DNA of 6,067 nucleotides. It comes from a virus. The position numbers and the translations under genes were made by a program. The stretch's first letter is position 1. Each line of letters starts with the position of its first letter. Below, piece after piece: positions 1 through 6,067 of this stretch. Location of the stretch: IMG/VR virus record IMGVR_UViG_3300038492_000631, positions 1-6,067 of that record; one strand, 5' to 3'. The notes beneath the pieces were generated by a model that was not told the DNA's origin, made no database searches, and saw nothing but the letters and a program-made list of their open reading frames with translations.

Positions 1-44
1 ATTGTGTGCCACTCTTCAGTGGCCCCGATTTTGAAGAACTTCAT
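1..44 (-). CDS. Duplicate of the first 14 full codons (plus 2 nt of codon 15) of the 206-aa ORF. It is the same gene as 5392..6012, seen again because of the circular overlap, and is not a separate gene.
   Basis: Position 44 corresponds to 6012 (ATG on the minus strand) after subtracting 5,968. Confidence 0.9.
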   Translation of the reverse strand, partial: MKFFKIGATEEWHT

Positions 45-64
45 GGTTTTTCCCTTGATGTGTC

Positions 65-85
65 ACTAGGGCTGTTCGCCCTGGT
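65..85 (-). repeat. Conserved 21-nt stem-loop element, copy A (viral strand ACCAGGGCGAACAGCCCTAGT). It lies 20 nt upstream of the 206-aa ORF start.
   Basis: Exact 21/21 identity with 1997-2017 and 3454-3474. Internal inverted repeat AGGGC / GCCCT with a 5-nt loop. Confidence 0.9.
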
Positions 86-103
86 GAAGTTATGCCGTTA
101 GGT

Positions 104-126
104 ACCAGGTGCTCTAGGCACCTGGT
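104..126 (-). terminator. Perfect 9-bp hairpin (ACCAGGTGC / TCTAG loop / GCACCTGGT) in the VP1-downstream intergenic region. It is a candidate terminator, mRNA 3' stabiliser or complementary-strand priming structure.
   Basis: The inverted repeat was read directly, and both arms carry CCWGG. It is flanked by direct repeats CCGTTAGGT (95-103) and CCGTTTAGGT (135-144). No U-tract follows on the coding strand. Confidence 0.45.
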
Positions 127-245
127 CCGTCGATCCGTTTAGGTCAGAAGAAATTCCAGAACCTGGATTGCTACCGACGTAAACGCGAGGGCGAATTCAT
201 TCCTGGCATACGCCCTTGCTTTTTTCACCTGGTCGTCAACGCCCA

Positions 246-1904
246 TTAGTCGTTGACCGACGTTTCTTCATTGCGACTGTTGTCCATGAGCGCGCGCGTG
301 TCCGCCCACTCATTGTCGGATTCAACCAACTGGCCGCCGAACTGGGTCAGGCCGCGGATCTTGCCCATTCCCTTGACCTGGATGTCAAAGGGATCCTGGT
401 CCGAATCAATGAACGGATTCTGGTTCATTGACGTTGCGACGTACCACTCCGTCGTAAGCGTCGGATCGGTCGGTTCGACGATCCAGAGCTTTTCGCGGTC
501 CTGGTCGTAGGTCGGCGAGCCGTTGTCGCGGAAGTACTTGCCACCGATCCTGGTGGCAACGACATTCCACTGATCGTTCTTTGGCATGAAGCCGAAGGTG
601 TCGGTACCGGCGGAATGCTCCACGTCAATGTGGGAATTTTCGACCACCTCGACGGGCTCGACGTCCAGGAAGTCACGTAGTGCCTGGGGAAGGTCCGAAA
701 CGTCGCCGGCTTCAAGCCAGTAGTTTTTCTGACGCTCGAAAATCTGGTCGGGAAGGATCTCAACCAGGATCATGATGGTTCCTCCGCACTGGACCGGAGG
801 CGTTGCCAGGTTGAGCTTGAAGATGCCAGCGCCCTGGCTGGTTTTCTCATCCAGGCTACCGGCGGTCGTCGAATACCTGGTCGACGTACCCAGGGCGCCC
901 ATCGTTGTGTCCAGGAGGATCGGTTGCTTGTACATCTGGTCGGAAATCTCCAGACCCATCATGAGCCGGTCGATTTCCCAATCCTCATCCAGGCCAGTGT
1001 ACTTCTGCCGAAGCTTTGCGAACTTCTCGGTCCGACGAGCCGCCGCCACGTCGGCAAGCGACATGGTCAGCGAGCCGTCGGTGAGCTCCGCCCACAAGTT
1101 CGGATAGCCCGGATTGTCCGGATCCTCCTCGACATGGATATTCTGCGTATTGGTGACTGCCGTCGCCGCGTATTCCGTCTCGATCCCGCCGGTCTCGCGA
1201 ACGGTCACGTTGGTGTTCGGATACGTCGATCCTTCCCGGCCAATACCGCGCAGGTTGAGCTTTGACTGGACTACGTCAATGTCCACGGCACCGATGATCA
1301 GCTCCTGGTCGTATTCCGACACAATGTTGTTGAACTGCCGATGGTGCCAGAACGCCGGCGCGACATCGGTCAGGAATTCGTCGCGAAGAATGATGTTCTT
1401 GGAGCGGTTCTTGGCCCGGTGATTCCAGATGATGTTGTAGCACTCGACGTAGTCGGTGTTCGCGTTCGCGGAATCGATGACATGTTCGCCCATGTAGTAA
1501 TGGATGTTGTCCTCATCGGGGGTACCGATATCGCCCACGTTGATGTAGTCGATCGGCGACCCTCCCGAATAGGGAGCCTCACCGTGGTAGCTTCTCATGA
1601 GCTGATCCATCGACCCGTCAAACCTGGCCTTCGCCAGGTTGGGCACCAGGTACGCCGACATCTTGACCGTCACGCCGTTCAACAGCTCATCCGCTGTTTC
1701 ATCCATCCGGACCTTCATGGCAACCGTTGTGCTCCGGAGCTGATCGCCCTGGAGCAGCGGGATTGCCGCCACCGGAATGCACTTGCCAGCAGGCATCGAC
1801 GTCATGACATCGACCGTGTGTGTCCTGGTCGTCTTGGGAATATCGACCGGGGACGTGTTCGTCCTGGCGTTTCCGTAACTGACCTCTGCGTTGTTCTTCC
1901 TCAT
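246..1904 (-). CDS. Major capsid protein VP1 (Microviridae F-protein family).
   Basis: 552-aa ORF, the size typical of gokushovirus-type VP1. The N-terminal segment '...GKCIPVAAIPLLQGDQL...' resembles the conserved VP1 N-terminal 'LPGD' strand. 'YNIIWNHRAKNR' resembles the conserved 'Y-N-x-I-x-N-x-x-Y-R' block. It is syntenic with a microvirus Rep and pilot protein. The start is ATG at 1904 with SD AAGGAAG (complement of 1909-1915) 4 nt upstream (5 nt from the SD's last base to the A of ATG), and the stop is TAA at 248..246. Confidence 0.9.
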   Translation of the reverse strand: MRKNNAEVSYGNARTNTSPVDIPKTTRTHTVDVMTSMPAGKCIPVAAIPLLQGDQLRSTTVAMKVRMDETADELLNGVTVKMSAYLVPNLAKARFDGSMDQLMRSYHGEAPYSGGSPIDYINVGDIGTPDEDNIHYYMGEHVIDSANANTDYVECYNIIWNHRAKNRSKNIILRDEFLTDVAPAFWHHRQFNNIVSEYDQELIIGAVDIDVVQSKLNLRGIGREGSTYPNTNVTVRETGGIETEYAATAVTNTQNIHVEEDPDNPGYPNLWAELTDGSLTMSLADVAAARRTEKFAKLRQKYTGLDEDWEIDRLMMGLEISDQMYKQPILLDTTMGALGTSTRYSTTAGSLDEKTSQGAGIFKLNLATPPVQCGGTIMILVEILPDQIFERQKNYWLEAGDVSDLPQALRDFLDVEPVEVVENSHIDVEHSAGTDTFGFMPKNDQWNVVATRIGGKYFRDNGSPTYDQDREKLWIVEPTDPTLTTEWYVATSMNQNPFIDSDQDPFDIQVKGMGKIRGLTQFGGQLVESDNEWADTRALMDNSRNEETSVND

Positions 1905-1958
1905 GTCACTTCCTTTTCAAGTTTCGGCGGAGTCTTAGAATTGCCGCCTTCATTTTTC

Positions 1959-1977
1959 GCCTGCGTTTTTCGCAGGC
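1959..1977 (-). terminator. 7-bp hairpin GCCTGCG / AAAAA / CGCAGGC between VP2 and VP1.
   Basis: Perfect inverted repeat. A second, weaker hairpin GGCGG(13 nt)CCGCC at 1926-1948 sits between it and the VP1 SD. No U-tract follows on the coding strand. Confidence 0.4.
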
Positions 1978-1996
1978 TTTGCACCTGGCCCGCTTG

Positions 1997-2017
1997 ACTA
2001 GGGCTGTTCGCCCTGGT
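1997..2017 (-). repeat. Conserved 21-nt stem-loop element, copy B. It lies 4 nt downstream of the VP2 stop and 92 nt upstream of the VP1 start.
   Basis: Exact 21-nt identity with the other copies. Confidence 0.9.
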
Positions 2018-2021
2018 CGCG

Positions 2022-3056
2022 CTACCACGTCTCGCCGGTGTGATAGGTCTGTTTCGGTTTCGACCTATTCGGCATTGGTTCGGAGCCGCCGAACAGCCAG
2101 GGCATGATCGGTTCTTCATCGATCTTAGGCCCTTTGCCGTGCCACCATTCCATTCCATGGGCCCAAAGCGCCTGGTCCATGTCTGGGCCCTCAGGATTCG
2201 CGCCCCAAACGGTTCGACCGTTCTTGAGCTTTGTCGGAACCAGGTAACTTCCGCTTTCGCCTGTCCTTGGTTCCCAGGTTGACAGCGCCTCTCCTGGAGT
2301 TGCTTCGTCAGACCTTGACACCATCTTGAGTCCACGTTCCTGGGTCTTCATTCCCTGGTTCAAAAGTTCAAGGCGCTTTTCCAGGATCCTAGTTTCGAGT
2401 TCGTCTCGTTTGTCCTGGACGGGATCGCCGAGTATTGACTGTGCAATATCACCGAGTCCCGCAGCGGTCGCTGCTACGTCCGCAAATACTTCGCTGTCCT
2501 GCATCCCTTGGACAAGGCTTGGGATGCTTCCTGACGACGGCGCTGCGCCTGGTGCTCCTGGAGCTGAGCCTCCGCCGAAGGACATTGGACCGACAGACGG
2601 ACCGCCTCCTGTCGATCCGCCTCCGGAACTGACGGCGCCGAAAGCGGCGGCTGGATTGATTCCCGCCTTACGCAGTCCCTCGACCTGGAGCGAAGGTGCC
2701 TCGCCCAGATCAAAAAGCTGTTGACGACGGTTGCGAAGATAATTCGCATACTGATTTTCCTCTGTCTTACGCCACTCGTAATCCGACGCCTTCCTGTTCA
2801 GCCGAGCCGCCAGGAGAGCGTTGTCATAGTCGTAACCTTGCTGGACCCCCATAAGATCCTTTTGCTGGTCGAGTTGGTAATCCATCTTCTCGAGATCGTG
2901 AACATGGTTCCACTCAGCCATTTTGCGGCCGTACTGAAAATTCAGTGCGGCCGCTTTTCGTTGCGACAGTCCCTGGTTGAACATGCCGCTTAGCGAGCTG
3001 ATGATACTTGCGCCTCCAGACAAAATGCCTGGAAGCGCACCGATGAAGCCAACCAT
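2022..3056 (-). CDS. DNA pilot / minor capsid protein VP2. The ATG at 3056 is preferred; the ORF track extends to a GTG at 3083.
   Basis: Gly/Ser-rich hydrophobic N-terminus 'VGFIGALPGILSGGASIISS'. The motif 'LRKAGINPAAAFG' matches the 'AG(L/I)NP..A(F/Y)' signature of microvirus VP2/pilot proteins. A long Gly/Pro/Ser linker 'GGGSTGGGPSVGPMSFGGGSAPGAPGAAPSSGS' is present. The codon at 3083 is GTG. The in-frame ATG at 3056 is preceded by AAGGGAAAAACC (the same SD context as the 206-aa ORF) and overlaps the upstream stop as TAATG. Confidence 0.85.
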   Translation of the reverse strand: MVGFIGALPGILSGGASIISSLSGMFNQGLSQRKAAALNFQYGRKMAEWNHVHDLEKMDYQLDQQKDLMGVQQGYDYDNALLAARLNRKASDYEWRKTEENQYANYLRNRRQQLFDLGEAPSLQVEGLRKAGINPAAAFGAVSSGGGSTGGGPSVGPMSFGGGSAPGAPGAAPSSGSIPSLVQGMQDSEVFADVAATAAGLGDIAQSILGDPVQDKRDELETRILEKRLELLNQGMKTQERGLKMVSRSDEATPGEALSTWEPRTGESGSYLVPTKLKNGRTVWGANPEGPDMDQALWAHGMEWWHGKGPKIDEEPIMPWLFGGSEPMPNRSKPKQTYHTGETW

Positions 3057-3238
3057 TAAGGTTTTTCCCTTCCTCGCAGCCACTCCGACACGATGCTGAT
3101 TGCCGCCGTGACCAAAACGGCAATCGCATTTGCCACTGCCGTTTCATCAACGACAGCGGACGCCACCGCGCCGCCGGTCACCAGGTGTGACACCCGATTG
3201 ACGACGCGGTTAGTAAGTATTCCGACAACTTTTTTCAT
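3056..3238 (-). CDS. Small 60-aa membrane protein (hypothetical). It is a candidate holin-like or virion/pilot-associated membrane peptide.
   Basis: ATG at 3238 with SD AAAGGA 4 nt upstream ('GAAAGGAAAACATG'). Hydrophobic segment 'AVANAIAVLVTAAISIV' followed by a charged tail 'SEWLRGREKP'. The stop TAA overlaps the VP2 ATG (TAATG). Confidence 0.6.
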   Translation of the reverse strand: MKKVVGILTNRVVNRVSHLVTGGAVASAVVDETAVANAIAVLVTAAISIVSEWLRGREKP

Positions 3239-3741
3239 GTTTTCCTTTCACACCAGGGAATGTACGGCCTGGATGTTCCGTCGCCGCGATTCGCGACTGG
3301 CCTAGCCTTGCAGTGATTTGTTAGGTCGCGCAAGCTATCGCTTGAATGTTTTCCACCATGCAACCTTTTTTGTTTCTGCTTTGCTGGCCGGTTAGGTCGC
3401 GTTTCGCGCTCTAGGTTCCTCGCTTCGCGAGTTACCTGGAACGCGGCCCGCCAACTAGGGCTGTTCGCCCTGGTCGGCTCCGCCCTGGTTTTCCTGACAG
3501 GCATTTCACCTGGTTGAAGCCTGGTGACCCTCACGGTCCTTGCCCTGAGGTCCGGCCTGGTTGTCGTTCTTGATCTCCGACGGCTTTCCAACTCTGGAAA
3601 GCCCTCGACTGCCAAACGCATCAGCCTCTCGAAATCGGTCTGACGCCTTTGGATTTTCGTGCTCTTTCTTGGTGCGCGCGAGCGGTTTTCCTGTATGCGG
3701 CGGCTACGACGCCGCCGCTTTTTGTAGGAAGCCATCGCCAT
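3235..3741 (-). CDS. Arginine-rich basic protein, a possible J/VP8-like internal DNA-binding protein. The coding status of the distal two-thirds is uncertain.
   Basis: The ORF starts inside the last 40 codons of rep in another frame. AAGGGGA lies upstream of the two ATGs (3741 and 3735, with better spacing to 3735). The N-terminus 'KKRRRRSRRIQENRSRAPRKSTKIQRRQ' is protamine-like, as expected for microvirus DNA-packaging proteins. Against full-length coding: the ORF runs through DNA-level repeats (the 21-mer, and 11-mers in different frames), and 168 aa is far longer than known J/VP8 proteins. Confidence 0.45.
   Translation of the reverse strand: MAMASYKKRRRRSRRIQENRSRAPRKSTKIQRRQTDFERLMRLAVEGFPELESRRRSRTTTRPDLRARTVRVTRLQPGEMPVRKTRAEPTRANSPSWRAAFQVTREARNLERETRPNRPAKQKQKRLHGGKHSSDSLRDLTNHCKARPVANRGDGTSRPYIPWCERKT
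3320..3330 (-). repeat. 11-nt direct repeat GTTAGGTCGCG (viral strand CGCGACCTAAC), copy 1.
   Basis: Exact repeat of 3391-3401, 71 nt away. The core GTTAGGT also occurs at 97-103, and a variant GTTTAGGT at 137-144, in the other long non-coding region. Confidence 0.7.
3391..3401 (-). repeat. 11-nt direct repeat GTTAGGTCGCG, copy 2.
   Basis: Exact identity with 3320-3330. The 71-nt spacing is not a multiple of 3, so the two copies fall in different frames of the Arg-rich ORF. Confidence 0.7.
3454..3474 (-). repeat. Conserved 21-nt stem-loop element, copy C. It lies 146 nt downstream of the rep stop, inside the Arg-rich ORF.
   Basis: Exact 21-nt identity. It is preceded on the viral strand by a partial tandem copy, ACCAGGGCG, 15 nt upstream. 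Copies B and C also share GCGGGCC just downstream. Confidence 0.9.
3582..3603 (-). terminator. Perfect 9-bp hairpin GGCTTTCCA / 4-nt loop / TGGAAAGCC, 17 nt downstream of the rep stop.
   Basis: The inverted repeat was read directly. Its position immediately 3' of rep fits a phiX-like leaky terminator or RNA-stabilising hairpin. No U-tract follows. Confidence 0.45.
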
Positions 3742-4652
3742 TCCCCTTCACTGTTTTGTTTGAAAACCTCGATGAACCCAACTACAGGGTTCACCGTCGC
3801 CCACAAGCGCAACATTTCATCCCAGAAAACCGGACTTTGCTTGTACGGAGCTTCCGGTTTTTCTGTTGCGCTTCGATGCTCAAACTGCATACGCAGCTCG
3901 ACATCCTGGTCTCTTGCGATTTTGTCCTGGTAGGCTTCCAGGTACTCGCTGGAACCTGGCAAGGTTCCACGCTCCTTGCACCACAGCTCCTGGAAATCTT
4001 CCAGGAAAATCTGTGCCGCCCTACCTCTCAATTTATGAATCTGACCGTCTAACTCGTAACGGTCATCTTGTGGCACCAACCCCTGGCTGACGTAGTCTGC
4101 AGCCAGGTCGCGGATAAACTTGCGCCCTATTATCGGTTGGGTGCTCATCCGGAGTGGTTCTGTCATCACTCCGTGTTTCGCGTAGCGGTCCTTGAGCGCA
4201 TATTTGACGACGTACTTTATCTGAACGTCCTCTGTCGGCCTGGTCAAATAGACGAAGCCATTTTGCCAGTATTTGCACTCTTGCTTTTCCTTTCGCTCCG
4301 CAAAATTTTCGTAGGGATCGCTACCAGCGCCCCACAGAAGCATGTGCCAGTGGGCACGTCCTTTCCTGGAGCCGTATTCTCCGGCAACCAGGTAACGCAC
4401 GTTGTAACCGGCTTTCCGAAGCCGTTTGAGGAAATTTTGAACATCGCGATAGGAAAGCACCACGGCTGACGCCGGGTCCTTTCCGTCAGCTCCTGGTCGA
4501 TAAGTCAGGTCCAACCTGACAAACCAGGAGGCTTCCTTGGTTTCTGTTTTTATTCTGCCAAGCCAGTCGTTCACCAGGACCGACTGGCATTGCCAGCATT
4601 CCTTACACCCGATTTTCAGGCCACTGGGCAAGACGCCTGGGTTGATACACAT
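3621..4652 (-). CDS. Replication initiation protein VP4 (HUH rolling-circle endonuclease, Microviridae Rep / phiX gene-A-like).
   Basis: N-terminal Cys cluster 'MCINP...GCKECWQC'. Motif I-like 'FVRLDLTY'. HUH motif 'RAHWHMLLW' (codons at about 4344-4352). Two-tyrosine catalytic motif 'KYVVKYALK' (Y147 and Y151, about 4200-4214), closely resembling phiX174 A 'YVAKYVNK'. ATG at 4652, and AAAGGA upstream. Confidence 0.93.
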   Translation of the reverse strand: MCINPGVLPSGLKIGCKECWQCQSVLVNDWLGRIKTETKEASWFVRLDLTYRPGADGKDPASAVVLSYRDVQNFLKRLRKAGYNVRYLVAGEYGSRKGRAHWHMLLWGAGSDPYENFAERKEKQECKYWQNGFVYLTRPTEDVQIKYVVKYALKDRYAKHGVMTEPLRMSTQPIIGRKFIRDLAADYVSQGLVPQDDRYELDGQIHKLRGRAAQIFLEDFQELWCKERGTLPGSSEYLEAYQDKIARDQDVELRMQFEHRSATEKPEAPYKQSPVFWDEMLRLWATVNPVVGFIEVFKQNSEGEWRWLPTKSGGVVAAAYRKTARAHQERARKSKGVRPISRG

Positions 4653-4690
4653 CCGTTTTTATCCTTTGCCTTCAATCGGGTGTCAGGAAA

Positions 4691-4714
4691 GACACTATTA
4701 TACAAGTTGGTGTC
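4691..4714 (-). promoter_or_regulatory. Candidate viral-strand replication origin / rep promoter region. The stem GACAC/GTGTC encloses CAACTTG followed by TATAATAG on the viral strand.
   Basis: The viral strand reads GACAC-CAACTTGTATAATA-GTGTC. CAACTTG (4709..4703) equals the first 7 nt of the phiX174 30-nt origin, CAACTTG^ATATTAATAAC. It is followed by the most AT-rich patch of the genome and lies 50 nt upstream of the rep ATG. The same TATAAT (4702..4697) is a perfect -10 hexamer, but I found no -35. Confidence 0.4.
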
Positions 4715-4722
4715 TGCCTTCC

Positions 4723-4759
4723 GCCCGCCCCTTCGCCTTATGTTGGCTACGGGGCGGGC
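4723..4759 (-). terminator. GC-rich 9-bp stem (GCCCGCCCC ... GGGGCGGGC) with a 19-nt loop, 12 nt downstream of the M15 peptidase stop.
   Basis: Perfect 9-bp G/C-only inverted repeat. It separates the peptidase from the rep upstream region. Confidence 0.45.
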
Positions 4760-4771
4760 TCCGCTGTTGAC

Positions 4772-5395
4772 TTAGTCAATCAGCTCCCAATGTGCGGGAT
4801 CGTAAAGCGAGTGCTCCAGGACGTTGCCGTCGCTGTCCCAATCTCCGCCGTTGCGGATCGGGATAGCGAGATCCCTTGCCAGGGTGTGGCCCAGCATCAT
4901 AATTGCGGCCCACTCCCCTTTGTTCAGGTTCCAGAACCTGGTCGAGTGAACGATGTCAACGGCTTTTCCGGCAGGATGCTTTCCGCCGGTCTTGATCTTG
5001 CTGAAGCCCTTCTCGTAAAGCTCCCGCTGGCGCTGGGGCGACCGCATTGCTTCCTGGACGTGAAACGGAAGCCGCTGCTTGACCAGGCGTTTACAAAACA
5101 CCTGGGCAAACAGCTTGATTCGCGGATCAACCCCGCGCCAATCCGCCCTGGAGGCGTACCTGGCCGACTTCGCCCTGGCGTTTTCATCGACCAGGCGCTG
5201 GAGCCCGACCGGCTCGGTGTAGCCGTCCACCTTGTAGTGGTTCGGATCGTAGTAAAGCAGCTCCGACGCATTCATTTTCACAATGTCCCGCTGGTCCATG
5301 TACATTCTCCGGATTGTCTTTCTGATGTGATGTGCCTTTGGCCCCGTTGCTGTTCGCAACGAGGCCTCCAGCGCCTTCCTGGCAATGCCGCTCAT
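4772..5395 (-). CDS. Peptidase M15 family zinc peptidoglycan hydrolase (VanY / L-Ala-D-Glu peptidase-like), a putative endolysin with an unassigned ~90-aa N-terminal extension.
   Basis: Catalytic-domain signatures: 'RSPQRQRELYEKG', then 'HPAGKAVDIVH' (H-x-x-G-x-A-x-D zinc ligands), and a C-terminal 'DPAHWEL' (D-x-x-H-x-E, third ligand and catalytic residue). No N-terminal signal peptide is visible. The ATG at 5395 overlaps the upstream stop (ATGA). Confidence 0.85.
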   Translation of the reverse strand: MSGIARKALEASLRTATGPKAHHIRKTIRRMYMDQRDIVKMNASELLYYDPNHYKVDGYTEPVGLQRLVDENARAKSARYASRADWRGVDPRIKLFAQVFCKRLVKQRLPFHVQEAMRSPQRQRELYEKGFSKIKTGGKHPAGKAVDIVHSTRFWNLNKGEWAAIMMLGHTLARDLAIPIRNGGDWDSDGNVLEHSLYDPAHWELID

Positions 5396-6012
5396 TTCTT
5401 CTTAGGTGCGGTATCTGAGGTCTCGACGACCTCTTGATTTTCATTGCCCGGCTCGCCGGTCGTCGTGGAGATCGGCGGGTCCGCCGGGTGCGGTGCCTTG
5501 GGATCGGGACTGACGCCCTTCGCCTTTGCGTCCTTCTTCATCTCCTCCAAGTCAGCCAACAGCGACTTGATCTGTTTCTGCTGTTCCTCGAAGGCCTTGA
5601 ACTCGGCTTTCTTACGCCGTTCTTCGTTCTGCTTTGCGATAGCCGCGACCAGCTCGGCCTGAGGATCGCGAACGCGTTCGCGCATTGGCCGCACGAACAC
5701 CGGTCCTTTGACTTCAAACCTGGTTCCCCTGAGGTTCCTGGTCCGGACGTTGACCGGCTTGGAAAAGGTGATGATTCCACCACCCTTCAGCTTTAGGTCG
5801 ATTGTCACGACCTCCGCTCCCGGGACAGGAAAAAAGTGTTCCACGGGCTGGCCCTGGTCATCGACGGTCCTGCCGTCACTGACAGTCATAGCGCAGCCTT
5901 CCTGGGCAAGCACCTCCAGCTTGATTCCGGTGTGCTTTGCACCGTGACTTTCCAGAGAAAGGCTTTCGATTGTGTGCCACTCTTCAGTGGCCCCGATTTT
6001 GAAGAACTTCAT
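5392..6012 (-). CDS. Hypothetical 206-aa protein. It has a beta-rich N-domain, a charged coiled-coil and a Pro-rich acidic tail, and may be a scaffolding (VP3-like) or accessory protein.
   Basis: ATG at 6012 with SD AAGGGA (complement of 6019-6024) 6 nt upstream. The central heptad-like charged helix is 'AELVAAIAKQNEERRKKAEFKAFEEQQKQIKSLLADLEEMKKDAKAKG'. The tail 'SPDPKAPHPADPPISTTTGEPGNENQEVVETSDTAPKKK' looks disordered. I recognise no family motif. Confidence 0.7.
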   Translation of the reverse strand: MKFFKIGATEEWHTIESLSLESHGAKHTGIKLEVLAQEGCAMTVSDGRTVDDQGQPVEHFFPVPGAEVVTIDLKLKGGGIITFSKPVNVRTRNLRGTRFEVKGPVFVRPMRERVRDPQAELVAAIAKQNEERRKKAEFKAFEEQQKQIKSLLADLEEMKKDAKAKGVSPDPKAPHPADPPISTTTGEPGNENQEVVETSDTAPKKK

Positions 6013-6067
6013 GGTTTTTCCCTTGATGTGTCACTAGGGCTGTTCGCCCTGGTGAAGTTATGCCGTT
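5969..6067. repeat. Second copy of the terminal redundancy (equals 1-99).
   Basis: Exact 99-nt identity with the window start. Confidence 0.97.
6033..6053 (-). repeat. Copy A of the 21-nt element seen again inside the terminal redundancy. It is not an independent copy.
   Basis: 65-85 plus 5,968. Confidence 0.9.

Follow-up and report, generated by a model that had tools for sequence, protein, structure and literature searches.

Extreme over-representation of the palindrome CCWGG in the genome of an alphaproteobacteria-type microvirus and its possible link to host methylation

The viral DNA analysed here is a stretch of 6,067 nucleotides (nt), referred to throughout as the window, that covers positions 1 to 6,067 of the virus record IMGVR_UViG_3300038492_000631 and consists of a circular unit of 5,968 nt plus 99 nt of terminal redundancy. 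In this study, we investigated the short palindrome CCWGG (W being A or T), which occurs 83 times in the circular unit where base composition predicts 16.3 copies in a zero-order model, a 5.1-fold excess by exact count. The same genome was assembled identically from two independent samples and is therefore not an assembly artefact. Its content of G plus C (GC) is 56.3%, and all of its genes lie on the minus strand, which is the coding strand in what follows. The genes and regions of the window are the following.

1 to 5968, coding strand minus: complete circular genome unit with 83 CCWGG sites (from the period of 5968 and the counts)
5969 to 6067: terminal redundancy of the assembled circle, 99 nt, same as 1 to 99
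45 to 245: main intergenic region, 201 nt, with 6 CCWGG sites against 0.55 expected
246 to 1904, minus: VP1, major capsid protein, 552 amino acids, 21 CCWGG sites (phrog_514 and homologues)
2022 to 3083, minus: VP2-like pilot protein, 353 amino acids, 15 CCWGG sites (phrog_8693)
3056 to 3238, minus: hydrophobic protein, 60 amino acids, conserved in the relatives L003 and L107
3235 to 3741, minus: Arg-rich protein, 168 amino acids, conserved, 8 CCWGG sites
3621 to 4652, minus: Rep, rolling-circle replication initiator, 343 amino acids, 15 CCWGG sites (PF23343, phrog_942)
4772 to 5395, minus: M15-type peptidase or endolysin-like protein, 207 amino acids, 11 CCWGG sites (phrog_465)
5392 to 6012, minus: protein without known function, 206 amino acids, 4 CCWGG sites

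The gene content combines a VP1-type capsid protein, a pilot protein and an HUH Rep, all encoded on one strand of a circle within the range of about 4 to 6.5 kb, as is found in the alphaproteobacterial group of the Microviridae. VP1 is 35 to 41% identical to its counterparts in Rhizobium and Roseobacter microviruses and in prophages of Hyphomicrobiales (Mesorhizobium, Agrobacterium, Rhizobium, Aminobacter and Devosia). Judged by these sequence features, the window represents the complete genome of an alphaproteobacteria-type microvirus. It shares its gene set (VP1, pilot protein, Rep, M15 peptidase and basic protein) with the 'Tainavirinae' and 'Occultatumvirinae' microviruses of Alphaproteobacteria (PMC9753089, PMC11499846), from which it differs in forming a deep branch whose closest relative has 60% VP1 identity, in having no dif-like site that we could find and in its unique usage of CCWGG. 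The coding strand is also T-poor (17.5%) and purine-rich, which is unusual for a microvirus, and palindromes made of A and T only are almost missing from the window: TTAA and TATA occur once each (12.5 expected for each), and TTWAA occurs 0 times against 5.4.

A preliminary description of this DNA, made from the letters alone, had counted about 83 CCWGG sites by hand, and this count is exact; the expectation, given there as about 15, computes to 16.3. As written, the sites are 56 CCTGG and 27 CCAGG, which corresponds to 56 CCAGG and 27 CCTGG on the coding strand. The claim that the excess is specific to the W centre was borne out as well, with the related word CCSGG (S being C or G) present in 9 copies rather than the roughly 8 estimated earlier, and the extended palindrome ACCWGGT occurs 11 times, as described. 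CCAGG ranks first among all 1,024 pentamers by count, by zero-order ratio (5.7-fold) and by maximal-order Markov z score (6.5); the observed-to-expected ratios of the two forms are 5.7 for CCAGG and 4.1 for CCTGG. Enrichment is found in all three reading frames, in both orientations and in non-coding DNA, a distribution like that of highly iterated palindromes (HIP). True intergenic DNA is even denser in sites than the genes (8 in 437 nt, about 1.2 expected), which upholds one part of the earlier statement that sites are densest in non-coding DNA; the other part fails, as the cluster at 3434 to 3560 lies in the conserved Arg-rich gene. Within the main intergenic region, two CCWGG sites form a perfect 8-bp hairpin at 105 to 125, CCAGGTGC-TCTAG-GCACCTGG. 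No tandem repeats were found in 80 to 232, and the 41-41-40 spacing seen there lies outside any repeat or genome-wide phasing.

An excess of this kind could be made by codon, dipeptide or oligonucleotide usage, or by chance, and protein sequence together with codon usage does supply part of it. Three types of synonymous codon shuffle (within genes, genome-wide and exactly dinucleotide-preserving; 2,000 to 3,000 shuffles) give means of 37 to 48 sites, two to three times the zero-order expectation. None of the 2,000 to 3,000 shuffles reaches 83, however, and the highest value is 61 (z 9 to 11). The preliminary description had judged codon or dipeptide usage a poor explanation from the presence of sites in all three frames, and it had named codon-preserving shuffles in advance as a comparison on which the signal would stand or fall; the excess stands. 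Given also the spread of the enrichment across frames and intergenic DNA and the identical assembly from two independent samples, an origin in usage or chance is virtually impossible.

The degree to which the word fills the available space is best seen at positions where it can be created by synonymous choice, namely P-G, [SPTA]-R, [SPTA]-W, x-Q-[VADEG] and x-L-[VADEG]. CCWGG occupies 75 of 125 such positions in the window (60%). Rare codons are drawn into the pattern, with 19 of the 41 AGG codons (46%) preceded by NCC. Of the CAG and CTG codons, 22 of 61 and 22 of 54 stand in the context C-CWG-G. Some sites owe their existence to amino-acid changes, such as DQD in the enriched lineages against DED in other relatives, or SQG and TQG against TNG and VNG.

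Comparison with relatives shows that this trait is lineage-specific. The sister lineage, represented by genomes from four samples (L003 to L006; VP1 60 to 62% identical to that of the window), has CCWGG at 4.0-fold, the same 2:1 ratio of the two forms and an occupancy of accessible positions of 53%. In the next lineage, L107 (VP1 about 59% and M15 59% identical), the word is at 0.46-fold and occupancy at 6%. In about 95 further relatives (VP1 about 35 to 41%), CCWGG ranges from 0- to 1.8-fold, with 0.07- to 0.37-fold in high-GC genomes, and occupancy is 1 to 4%; taken together, L007, L010, L008 and L107 occupy 1 to 6% of accessible positions. A neighbour-joining tree has the form (L107,(L003,window)). 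Only the sister lineage shares the enrichment, while the next lineage and most of the roughly 95 further relatives remove the word. Among all palindromic 4-, 5- and 6-mers in 75 related genomes, CCWGG in the window and CCWGG in L003 are the two strongest positive outliers, and in the high-GC relatives inspected singly (L007, the L010 prophage and L014) it ranks with the most strongly avoided palindromes. Depletion, the mark of restriction-site avoidance, thus characterizes most relatives and is absent from the window, where the word is 5.1-fold over. The view that enrichment runs opposite to the usual trend is supported by these data, as nearly all of the approximately 100 related microviruses are without excess and most purge the word.

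The two enriched lineages do not share all of their word usage. GANTC, a CcrM/HinfI-type word, has 1 site against about 17 to 21 expected in L003, L107 and L108, and 15 against 21.6 in the window. For CCSGG, it is the window that shows depletion (9 against 21), unlike L003 (22 against 25). Pressures on words other than CCWGG thus differ between the two enriched lineages. In VP1, 10 of 21 sites lie at the same position in the window and in L003. Independent equilibrium occupancy (0.6 x 0.53) would by itself lead to about one third being shared, and the shared sites are therefore no proof of conservation.

The preliminary description had also presented the excess as strand-polarised and had singled out an octamer, CGACCAGG on the coding strand, as a signal. 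Given the A>T skew of the coding strand, a CCAGG fraction of 0.597 is expected, from which the observed 56:27 does not deviate significantly (binomial p = 0.09), and the codon-shuffle nulls give CCAGG:CCTGG ratios of 1.8 to 2.0 against 2.07 observed. The nine copies of the octamer are located as described: CCTGGTCG, its form as written, starts at 228, 500, 876, 1304, 1824, 2012, 3469, 4492 and 4937, and the lone opposite copy is at 5188. Where about 0.1 copies had been given as the expectation, codon nulls yield 3.9 to 4.8 copies and independent flank frequencies 4.6 (p = 0.04 for the nine observed). The 9:1 orientation has p = 0.13, so that neither CCAGG:CCTGG nor the octamer has an orientation bias beyond base skew. 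The octamer copies outside the repeat described next are these.

228 to 235, minus: CGACCAGG copy, intergenic
500 to 507, minus: CGACCAGG copy in VP1, read as GAC-CAG-G (DQD)
876 to 883, minus: CGACCAGG copy in VP1, read as ACC-AGG (TR)
1304 to 1311, minus: CGACCAGG copy in VP1 (DQE)
1824 to 1831, minus: CGACCAGG copy in VP1 (TR)
4492 to 4499, minus: CGACCAGG copy in Rep, read as CCA-GGA (PG)
4937 to 4944, minus: CGACCAGG copy in the M15 gene (TR)
5188 to 5195, plus: single reverse-oriented copy of the octamer

The remaining two of the nine copies lie inside a 23-nt element, CGACCAGGGCGAACAGCCCTAGT, of which the window has three copies on the minus strand.

65 to 87, minus: hairpin repeat copy 1, coding strand cACCAGGGCGAACAGCCCTAGT, with one CCAGG, upstream of orfA; fold of -7.4 kcal/mol, flanks pairing CAC/GTG
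1997 to 2019, minus: hairpin repeat copy 2, CGACCAGGGCGAACAGCCCTAGT, with one octamer copy, just downstream of VP2; flanks pairing GAC/GTC
3454 to 3476, minus: hairpin repeat copy 3, with one octamer copy, inside the Arg-rich gene; flanks pairing CCGAC/GTTGG, -9.5 kcal/mol

Each copy has a 5-bp AGGGC/GCCCT stem, a GAACA loop and a conserved C/A mismatch, and the outer flanks vary between copies yet remain complementary. The repeat had no match in Rfam and only chance matches in metagenome contigs; candidate functions are those of a regulatory hairpin, terminator or origin-type hairpin.

The context of the sites is symmetric rather than polar. Flanks of the 83 sites are reverse-complement symmetric (W-CCWGG-W), with A at -1 enriched 1.7-fold, T at +1 enriched 1.8-fold and C and G disfavoured on both sides, and this preference accounts for the 11 copies of ACCWGGT. 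Spacing is Poisson-like (coefficient of variation of the gaps 1.05) without helical periodicity. The long site-free runs noticed earlier exist, although there are four of them (at least 315 nt) rather than three, and they amount to mild over-dispersion only (p = 0.02). We therefore dropped strand polarity and the polar octamer as signals in their own right, as A>T skew, flank preference and the 23-nt repeat explain both; the octamer is a weak secondary effect of the flank preference plus the repeat.

These observations bear on the idea that some other factor reads the duplex without any methylation, for example through a Chi-like signal for AddAB or RecBCD that would guard rolling-circle intermediates and have CGACCAGG as its polar core. 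The 9:1 octamer, the 16 copies of GACCAGG in the window, the 8 copies of GACCAGG and 4 of CGACCAGG in L003 and the fact that Chi is not known for AddAB-type Alphaproteobacteria (PMC8022716) all leave room for such a factor. Nevertheless, base skew accounts for the 9:1 orientation (p = 0.13), the octamer is just about twofold over its conditional expectation and owes part of that to the repeat, and the main signal is a palindrome enriched both ways, unlike known Chi or KOPS words. We consider a Chi-like role improbable.

Another set of explanations places the role of the sites in single-stranded DNA (ssDNA): base pairing between CCAGG and CCTGG could help the packaged strand to fold or condense, or the words could be contacted by the Arg-rich, putatively DNA-binding protein. 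When the viral strand was folded with DNA parameters in eight chunks of 746 nt, the native sequence reached -1236 kcal/mol, far better than synonymous shuffles that preserve dinucleotides (-1067+/-19, z -8.8) or stay within genes (-1046+/-14, z -13). In the minimum free energy structure, 28 of 83 sites are fully paired with another site, and destroying only the 67 sites in the six scored genes (78 nt changed) leaves -1189+/-7, a cost of about 48 kcal/mol or about a quarter of the excess. Freezing all CCWGG sites and shuffling the rest, however, gives -1071+/-17, near the full-shuffle means, so that the folding excess is lost while the sites are retained. The excess is equally large or larger in relatives, with z -12.3 in L003 and z -14.3 in L007, which has just 3 sites. 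The structure thus does not need the word, and a word-poor relative is not unstructured. A 2:1 imbalance of CCAGG to CCTGG would in addition suit a pairing code badly. On the basis of the two site controls (freezing and destroying) and of the CCWGG-poor L007, we rejected ssDNA structure, including the pervasive CCAGG:CCTGG pairing suggested earlier, as the purpose of the sites. In these models, strong predicted folding is a general property of the virus group and largely independent of CCWGG; the three genomes folded (z -9 to -14) suggest pervasive selected ssDNA or mRNA structure across the microvirus group.

Contacts with the Arg-rich protein, also suggested in the preliminary description, fare no better. 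The gene of this Arg/Lys-rich protein (3235 to 3741) covers the final 121 nt of Rep in a different frame, and the protein has a C-terminal motif, HCKxRP...G..SR..[IV]PWCERK. An Arg-rich N-terminus and the motif HCKxRP...PWCERK are common to a 128-amino-acid protein of the sister lineage and many other relatives, and homologues occur in most relatives, often unannotated or off the frame of the called gene (e.g., L107 3678 to 4052). The protein is thus not confined to the enriched lineages, a possibility ruled out by the homologues in L107 and many CCWGG-poor relatives, and because the family is also encoded by these relatives, its presence is no explanation of the enrichment. Overall, an ssDNA-level role is largely refuted and appears very improbable.

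A more serious contender is the host itself. A CCWGG-rich host, for instance one in which Dcm plus very short patch (VSP) repair by Vsr turns CTWGG and CCWAG into CCWGG, might be mirrored by the phage, passively or adaptively. Both enriched lineages indeed have little CTWGG on the coding strand (window 4 against 10.9, L003 5 against 11.7), and one of the single-nucleotide polymorphisms (SNPs) among L003 to L006 is a CCAAG<->CCAGG exchange. The low CTWGG count, however, equals its Markov expectation, and CCWAG is not depleted (15 against 14.2); the combination that marks VSP repair, CCWGG up with CTWGG and CCWAG both down, is therefore not what the window presents. The whole transition family (CCWGG, CTWGG, CCWAG and CTWAG) has 107 members against 50.8 expected, 2.1-fold, which means that the excess cannot come from conversion of one member into another. 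Under a simple neutral mutation model, even perfect VSP repair (T:G to C:G at the two inner positions) would, by our reasoning, raise CCWGG at most about threefold, with total loss of CTWGG and CCWAG. Together, this bound and the neighbour counts rule out VSP repair alone as sufficient.

Composition of the host at large could act without VSP repair, and we surveyed CCWGG-rich cellular genomes through EF-Tu patterns forced to CCWGG codons, which yielded, over two scans, a biased sample of at least 161 loci. Among the matches listed, values of 2- to 3.4-fold occur in Dehalococcoidia, Bacillota, Bacteroidota and Acidobacteriota, and at GC of at least 0.55 the maxima are 3.1- to 3.4-fold (a Dehalococcoidia and a Bacillota metagenome-assembled genome, MAG). 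In the MAGs L147 (Dehalococcoidia), L187 (Acidobacteriota) and L121 (Bacillota), the 8 kb around tuf have CCAGG as the top pentamer or CCWGG at 2- to 3.4-fold. Bacteria beyond Enterobacteria can thus be moderately rich in CCWGG, in some cases with CCAGG as the top pentamer (L147, L187). Phages can also exaggerate a host trend, since related prophages lie below their own host flanks at every locus except L099.

Set against this, none of the EF-Tu loci listed (at least 161, pre-selected for CCWGG codons) reaches fourfold, and among the matches listed no locus labelled as alphaproteobacterial exceeds about 1.4-fold, with an unclassified Pseudomonadota MAG at 1.7-fold. Host DNA around 18 Hyphomicrobiales prophage relatives is at only 0.1- to 1.07-fold. 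Tetranucleotide usage of the window matches Hyphomicrobiales flanks (r about 0.72) and not a CCWGG-rich Dehalococcoidia locus (r 0.22); its correlation is lowest with CCWGG-rich loci (r 0.09 to 0.29). The differences in GANTC (15 against 1) and CCSGG between the enriched lineages make one shared host composition improbable. Amelioration toward the host, which the preliminary description had named as a case that would refute a phage-specific signal, is thereby weakened, within samples that are biased and incomplete, and we regard host repair bias or composition as an unlikely source of the excess, if the strongest of the competing ones.

The search for a host found no close prophage in genome contigs and no relatives in metagenome contigs, and homologues of the M15 peptidase were found only in other small viral contigs, none of them informative on the host. 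In Hyphomicrobiales, prophage relatives have dif-like direct repeats on either side (e.g., GATTGCATAAGATATATTATG), at 8879/14573 in L010, 5378/11222 in L011 and 5965/11686 in L008; in L010 and L011 the repeats lie between mazG/hflX and a cluster of metG-like tRNA synthetase, tatD and lactamase_B genes. Judged by sequence, these repeats are consistent with XerCD-mediated integration. No dif-like site was found in the window.

Our results lead us, tentatively, to favour duplex-level positive selection on the replicative form, tied to a host CCWGG methylation system, and we put this forward as a possibility rather than an established mechanism. Codon choices, some amino-acid choices and intergenic DNA have all been shaped so that CCWGG fills about 60% of its possible positions. 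The evidence supports a persistent positive pressure on the word as a double-strand palindrome, because the orientations are about equally enriched after correction for A>T skew, flanks are symmetric, all frames and non-coding DNA are affected and spacing is Poisson-like. Its size per site is roughly equal and opposite to that of avoidance in the relatives. Most relatives purge this very word, which makes CCWGG-reading host enzymes (methyltransferases of the Dcm/EcoRII type, with their partners) the simplest common agent. We propose that a host CCWGG-specific cytosine methyltransferase of the Dcm, M.EcoRII or DrmMII type might modify the double-stranded replicative form, that selection would favour dense target words on this form and that the sites, once methylated, would act as a protective or 'self' mark, making the phenomenon the sign-reversed counterpart of restriction-site avoidance. 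By analogy with DISARM, we speculate further that enrichment may act as camouflage, with progeny strands so densely marked as 'self' that they switch off a methylation-sensing, motif-independent defence in the next host; this extension is rather doubtful.

Several points weigh against selection for methylated sites. The host search yielded no host, and with it no methyltransferase, restriction enzyme or defence system. The only two enriched lineages known represent a single evolutionary event, and 23 SNPs among L003 to L006 carry no clear purifying signal on the sites and are too few for a direction of gain or loss. Intramolecular pairing of sites would also yield symmetric flanks. Finally, under classical restriction-modification (R-M), more sites mean more restriction, and a benefit would need a non-classical system.

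Whatever its cause, the CCWGG excess is a real, unexplained and testable anomaly. The statistics of short palindromes in phages have so far been read almost wholly as avoidance of restriction targets, and here lineages with capsid proteins about 60% identical pass from near-total avoidance to near-saturation of one word, under a force that imposes rare codons (46% of AGG in CCAGG) and some changes of amino acid. If self-marking by methylation is true, it would be a new counter-defence principle, and word enrichment, beside depletion, could reveal host defence repertoires from viral metagenomes. If extreme host repair bias is true instead, it would amount to a VSP-like drive of unusual strength. 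In either event a direct test is open, as 75 synonymous changes suffice to clear the genes of the word. In the literature searched, we found no phage with an R-M or methylation target at about 60% saturation beside relatives that purge it, and no description of a motif-enrichment camouflage strategy for any phage.

Among known systems, restriction-site avoidance in phages and plasmids has in common with the window a short R-M palindrome, a genome-wide effect on synonymous codons and dependence on lineage and host; the sign is reversed here, with 60% occupancy against 1 to 6% in relatives. In E. coli K-12, Dcm/Vsr VSP bias was reportedly described between 1992 and 1995 as an excess of CCWGG with a deficit of CTAG and CTWGG. 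The word is the same, and CTWGG is low on one strand of the window; the excess is fivefold compared with what is said to be roughly 1.3-fold in E. coli, CCWAG is undepleted and the transition family is at 2.1-fold.

HIP1 (GCGATCGC) of cyanobacteria is a highly iterated palindrome that contains a methyltransferase target (PMC6105098, PMC6604393). The likeness lies in a palindrome with a methylation target that is over-represented in coding and non-coding DNA and in any frame. HIP1, however, is an 8-mer of cellular chromosomes, whereas the word described here is a 5-mer in a 6-kb phage for which no enriched host is known. DISARM provides a precedent for a motif whose methylated copies benefit their carrier, and one described system uses CCWGG: restriction is motif-independent, methylated motifs switch the system off, with plasmid transfer rising 82- to 134-fold, and CCWGG is the reported target of class 2 DrmMII (bioRxiv 10.1101/2021.12.28.474362). 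According to the same authors, protection by DISARM did not scale with the number of sites in phages (10.1101/2021.12.28.474362); nothing ties this virus to a DISARM host, and DISARM is not known to go with motif enrichment in phages. Collectively, the CCWGG enrichment of this microvirus resembles restriction-site avoidance, VSP bias and HIP elements, and on the features tested it fits none of them.

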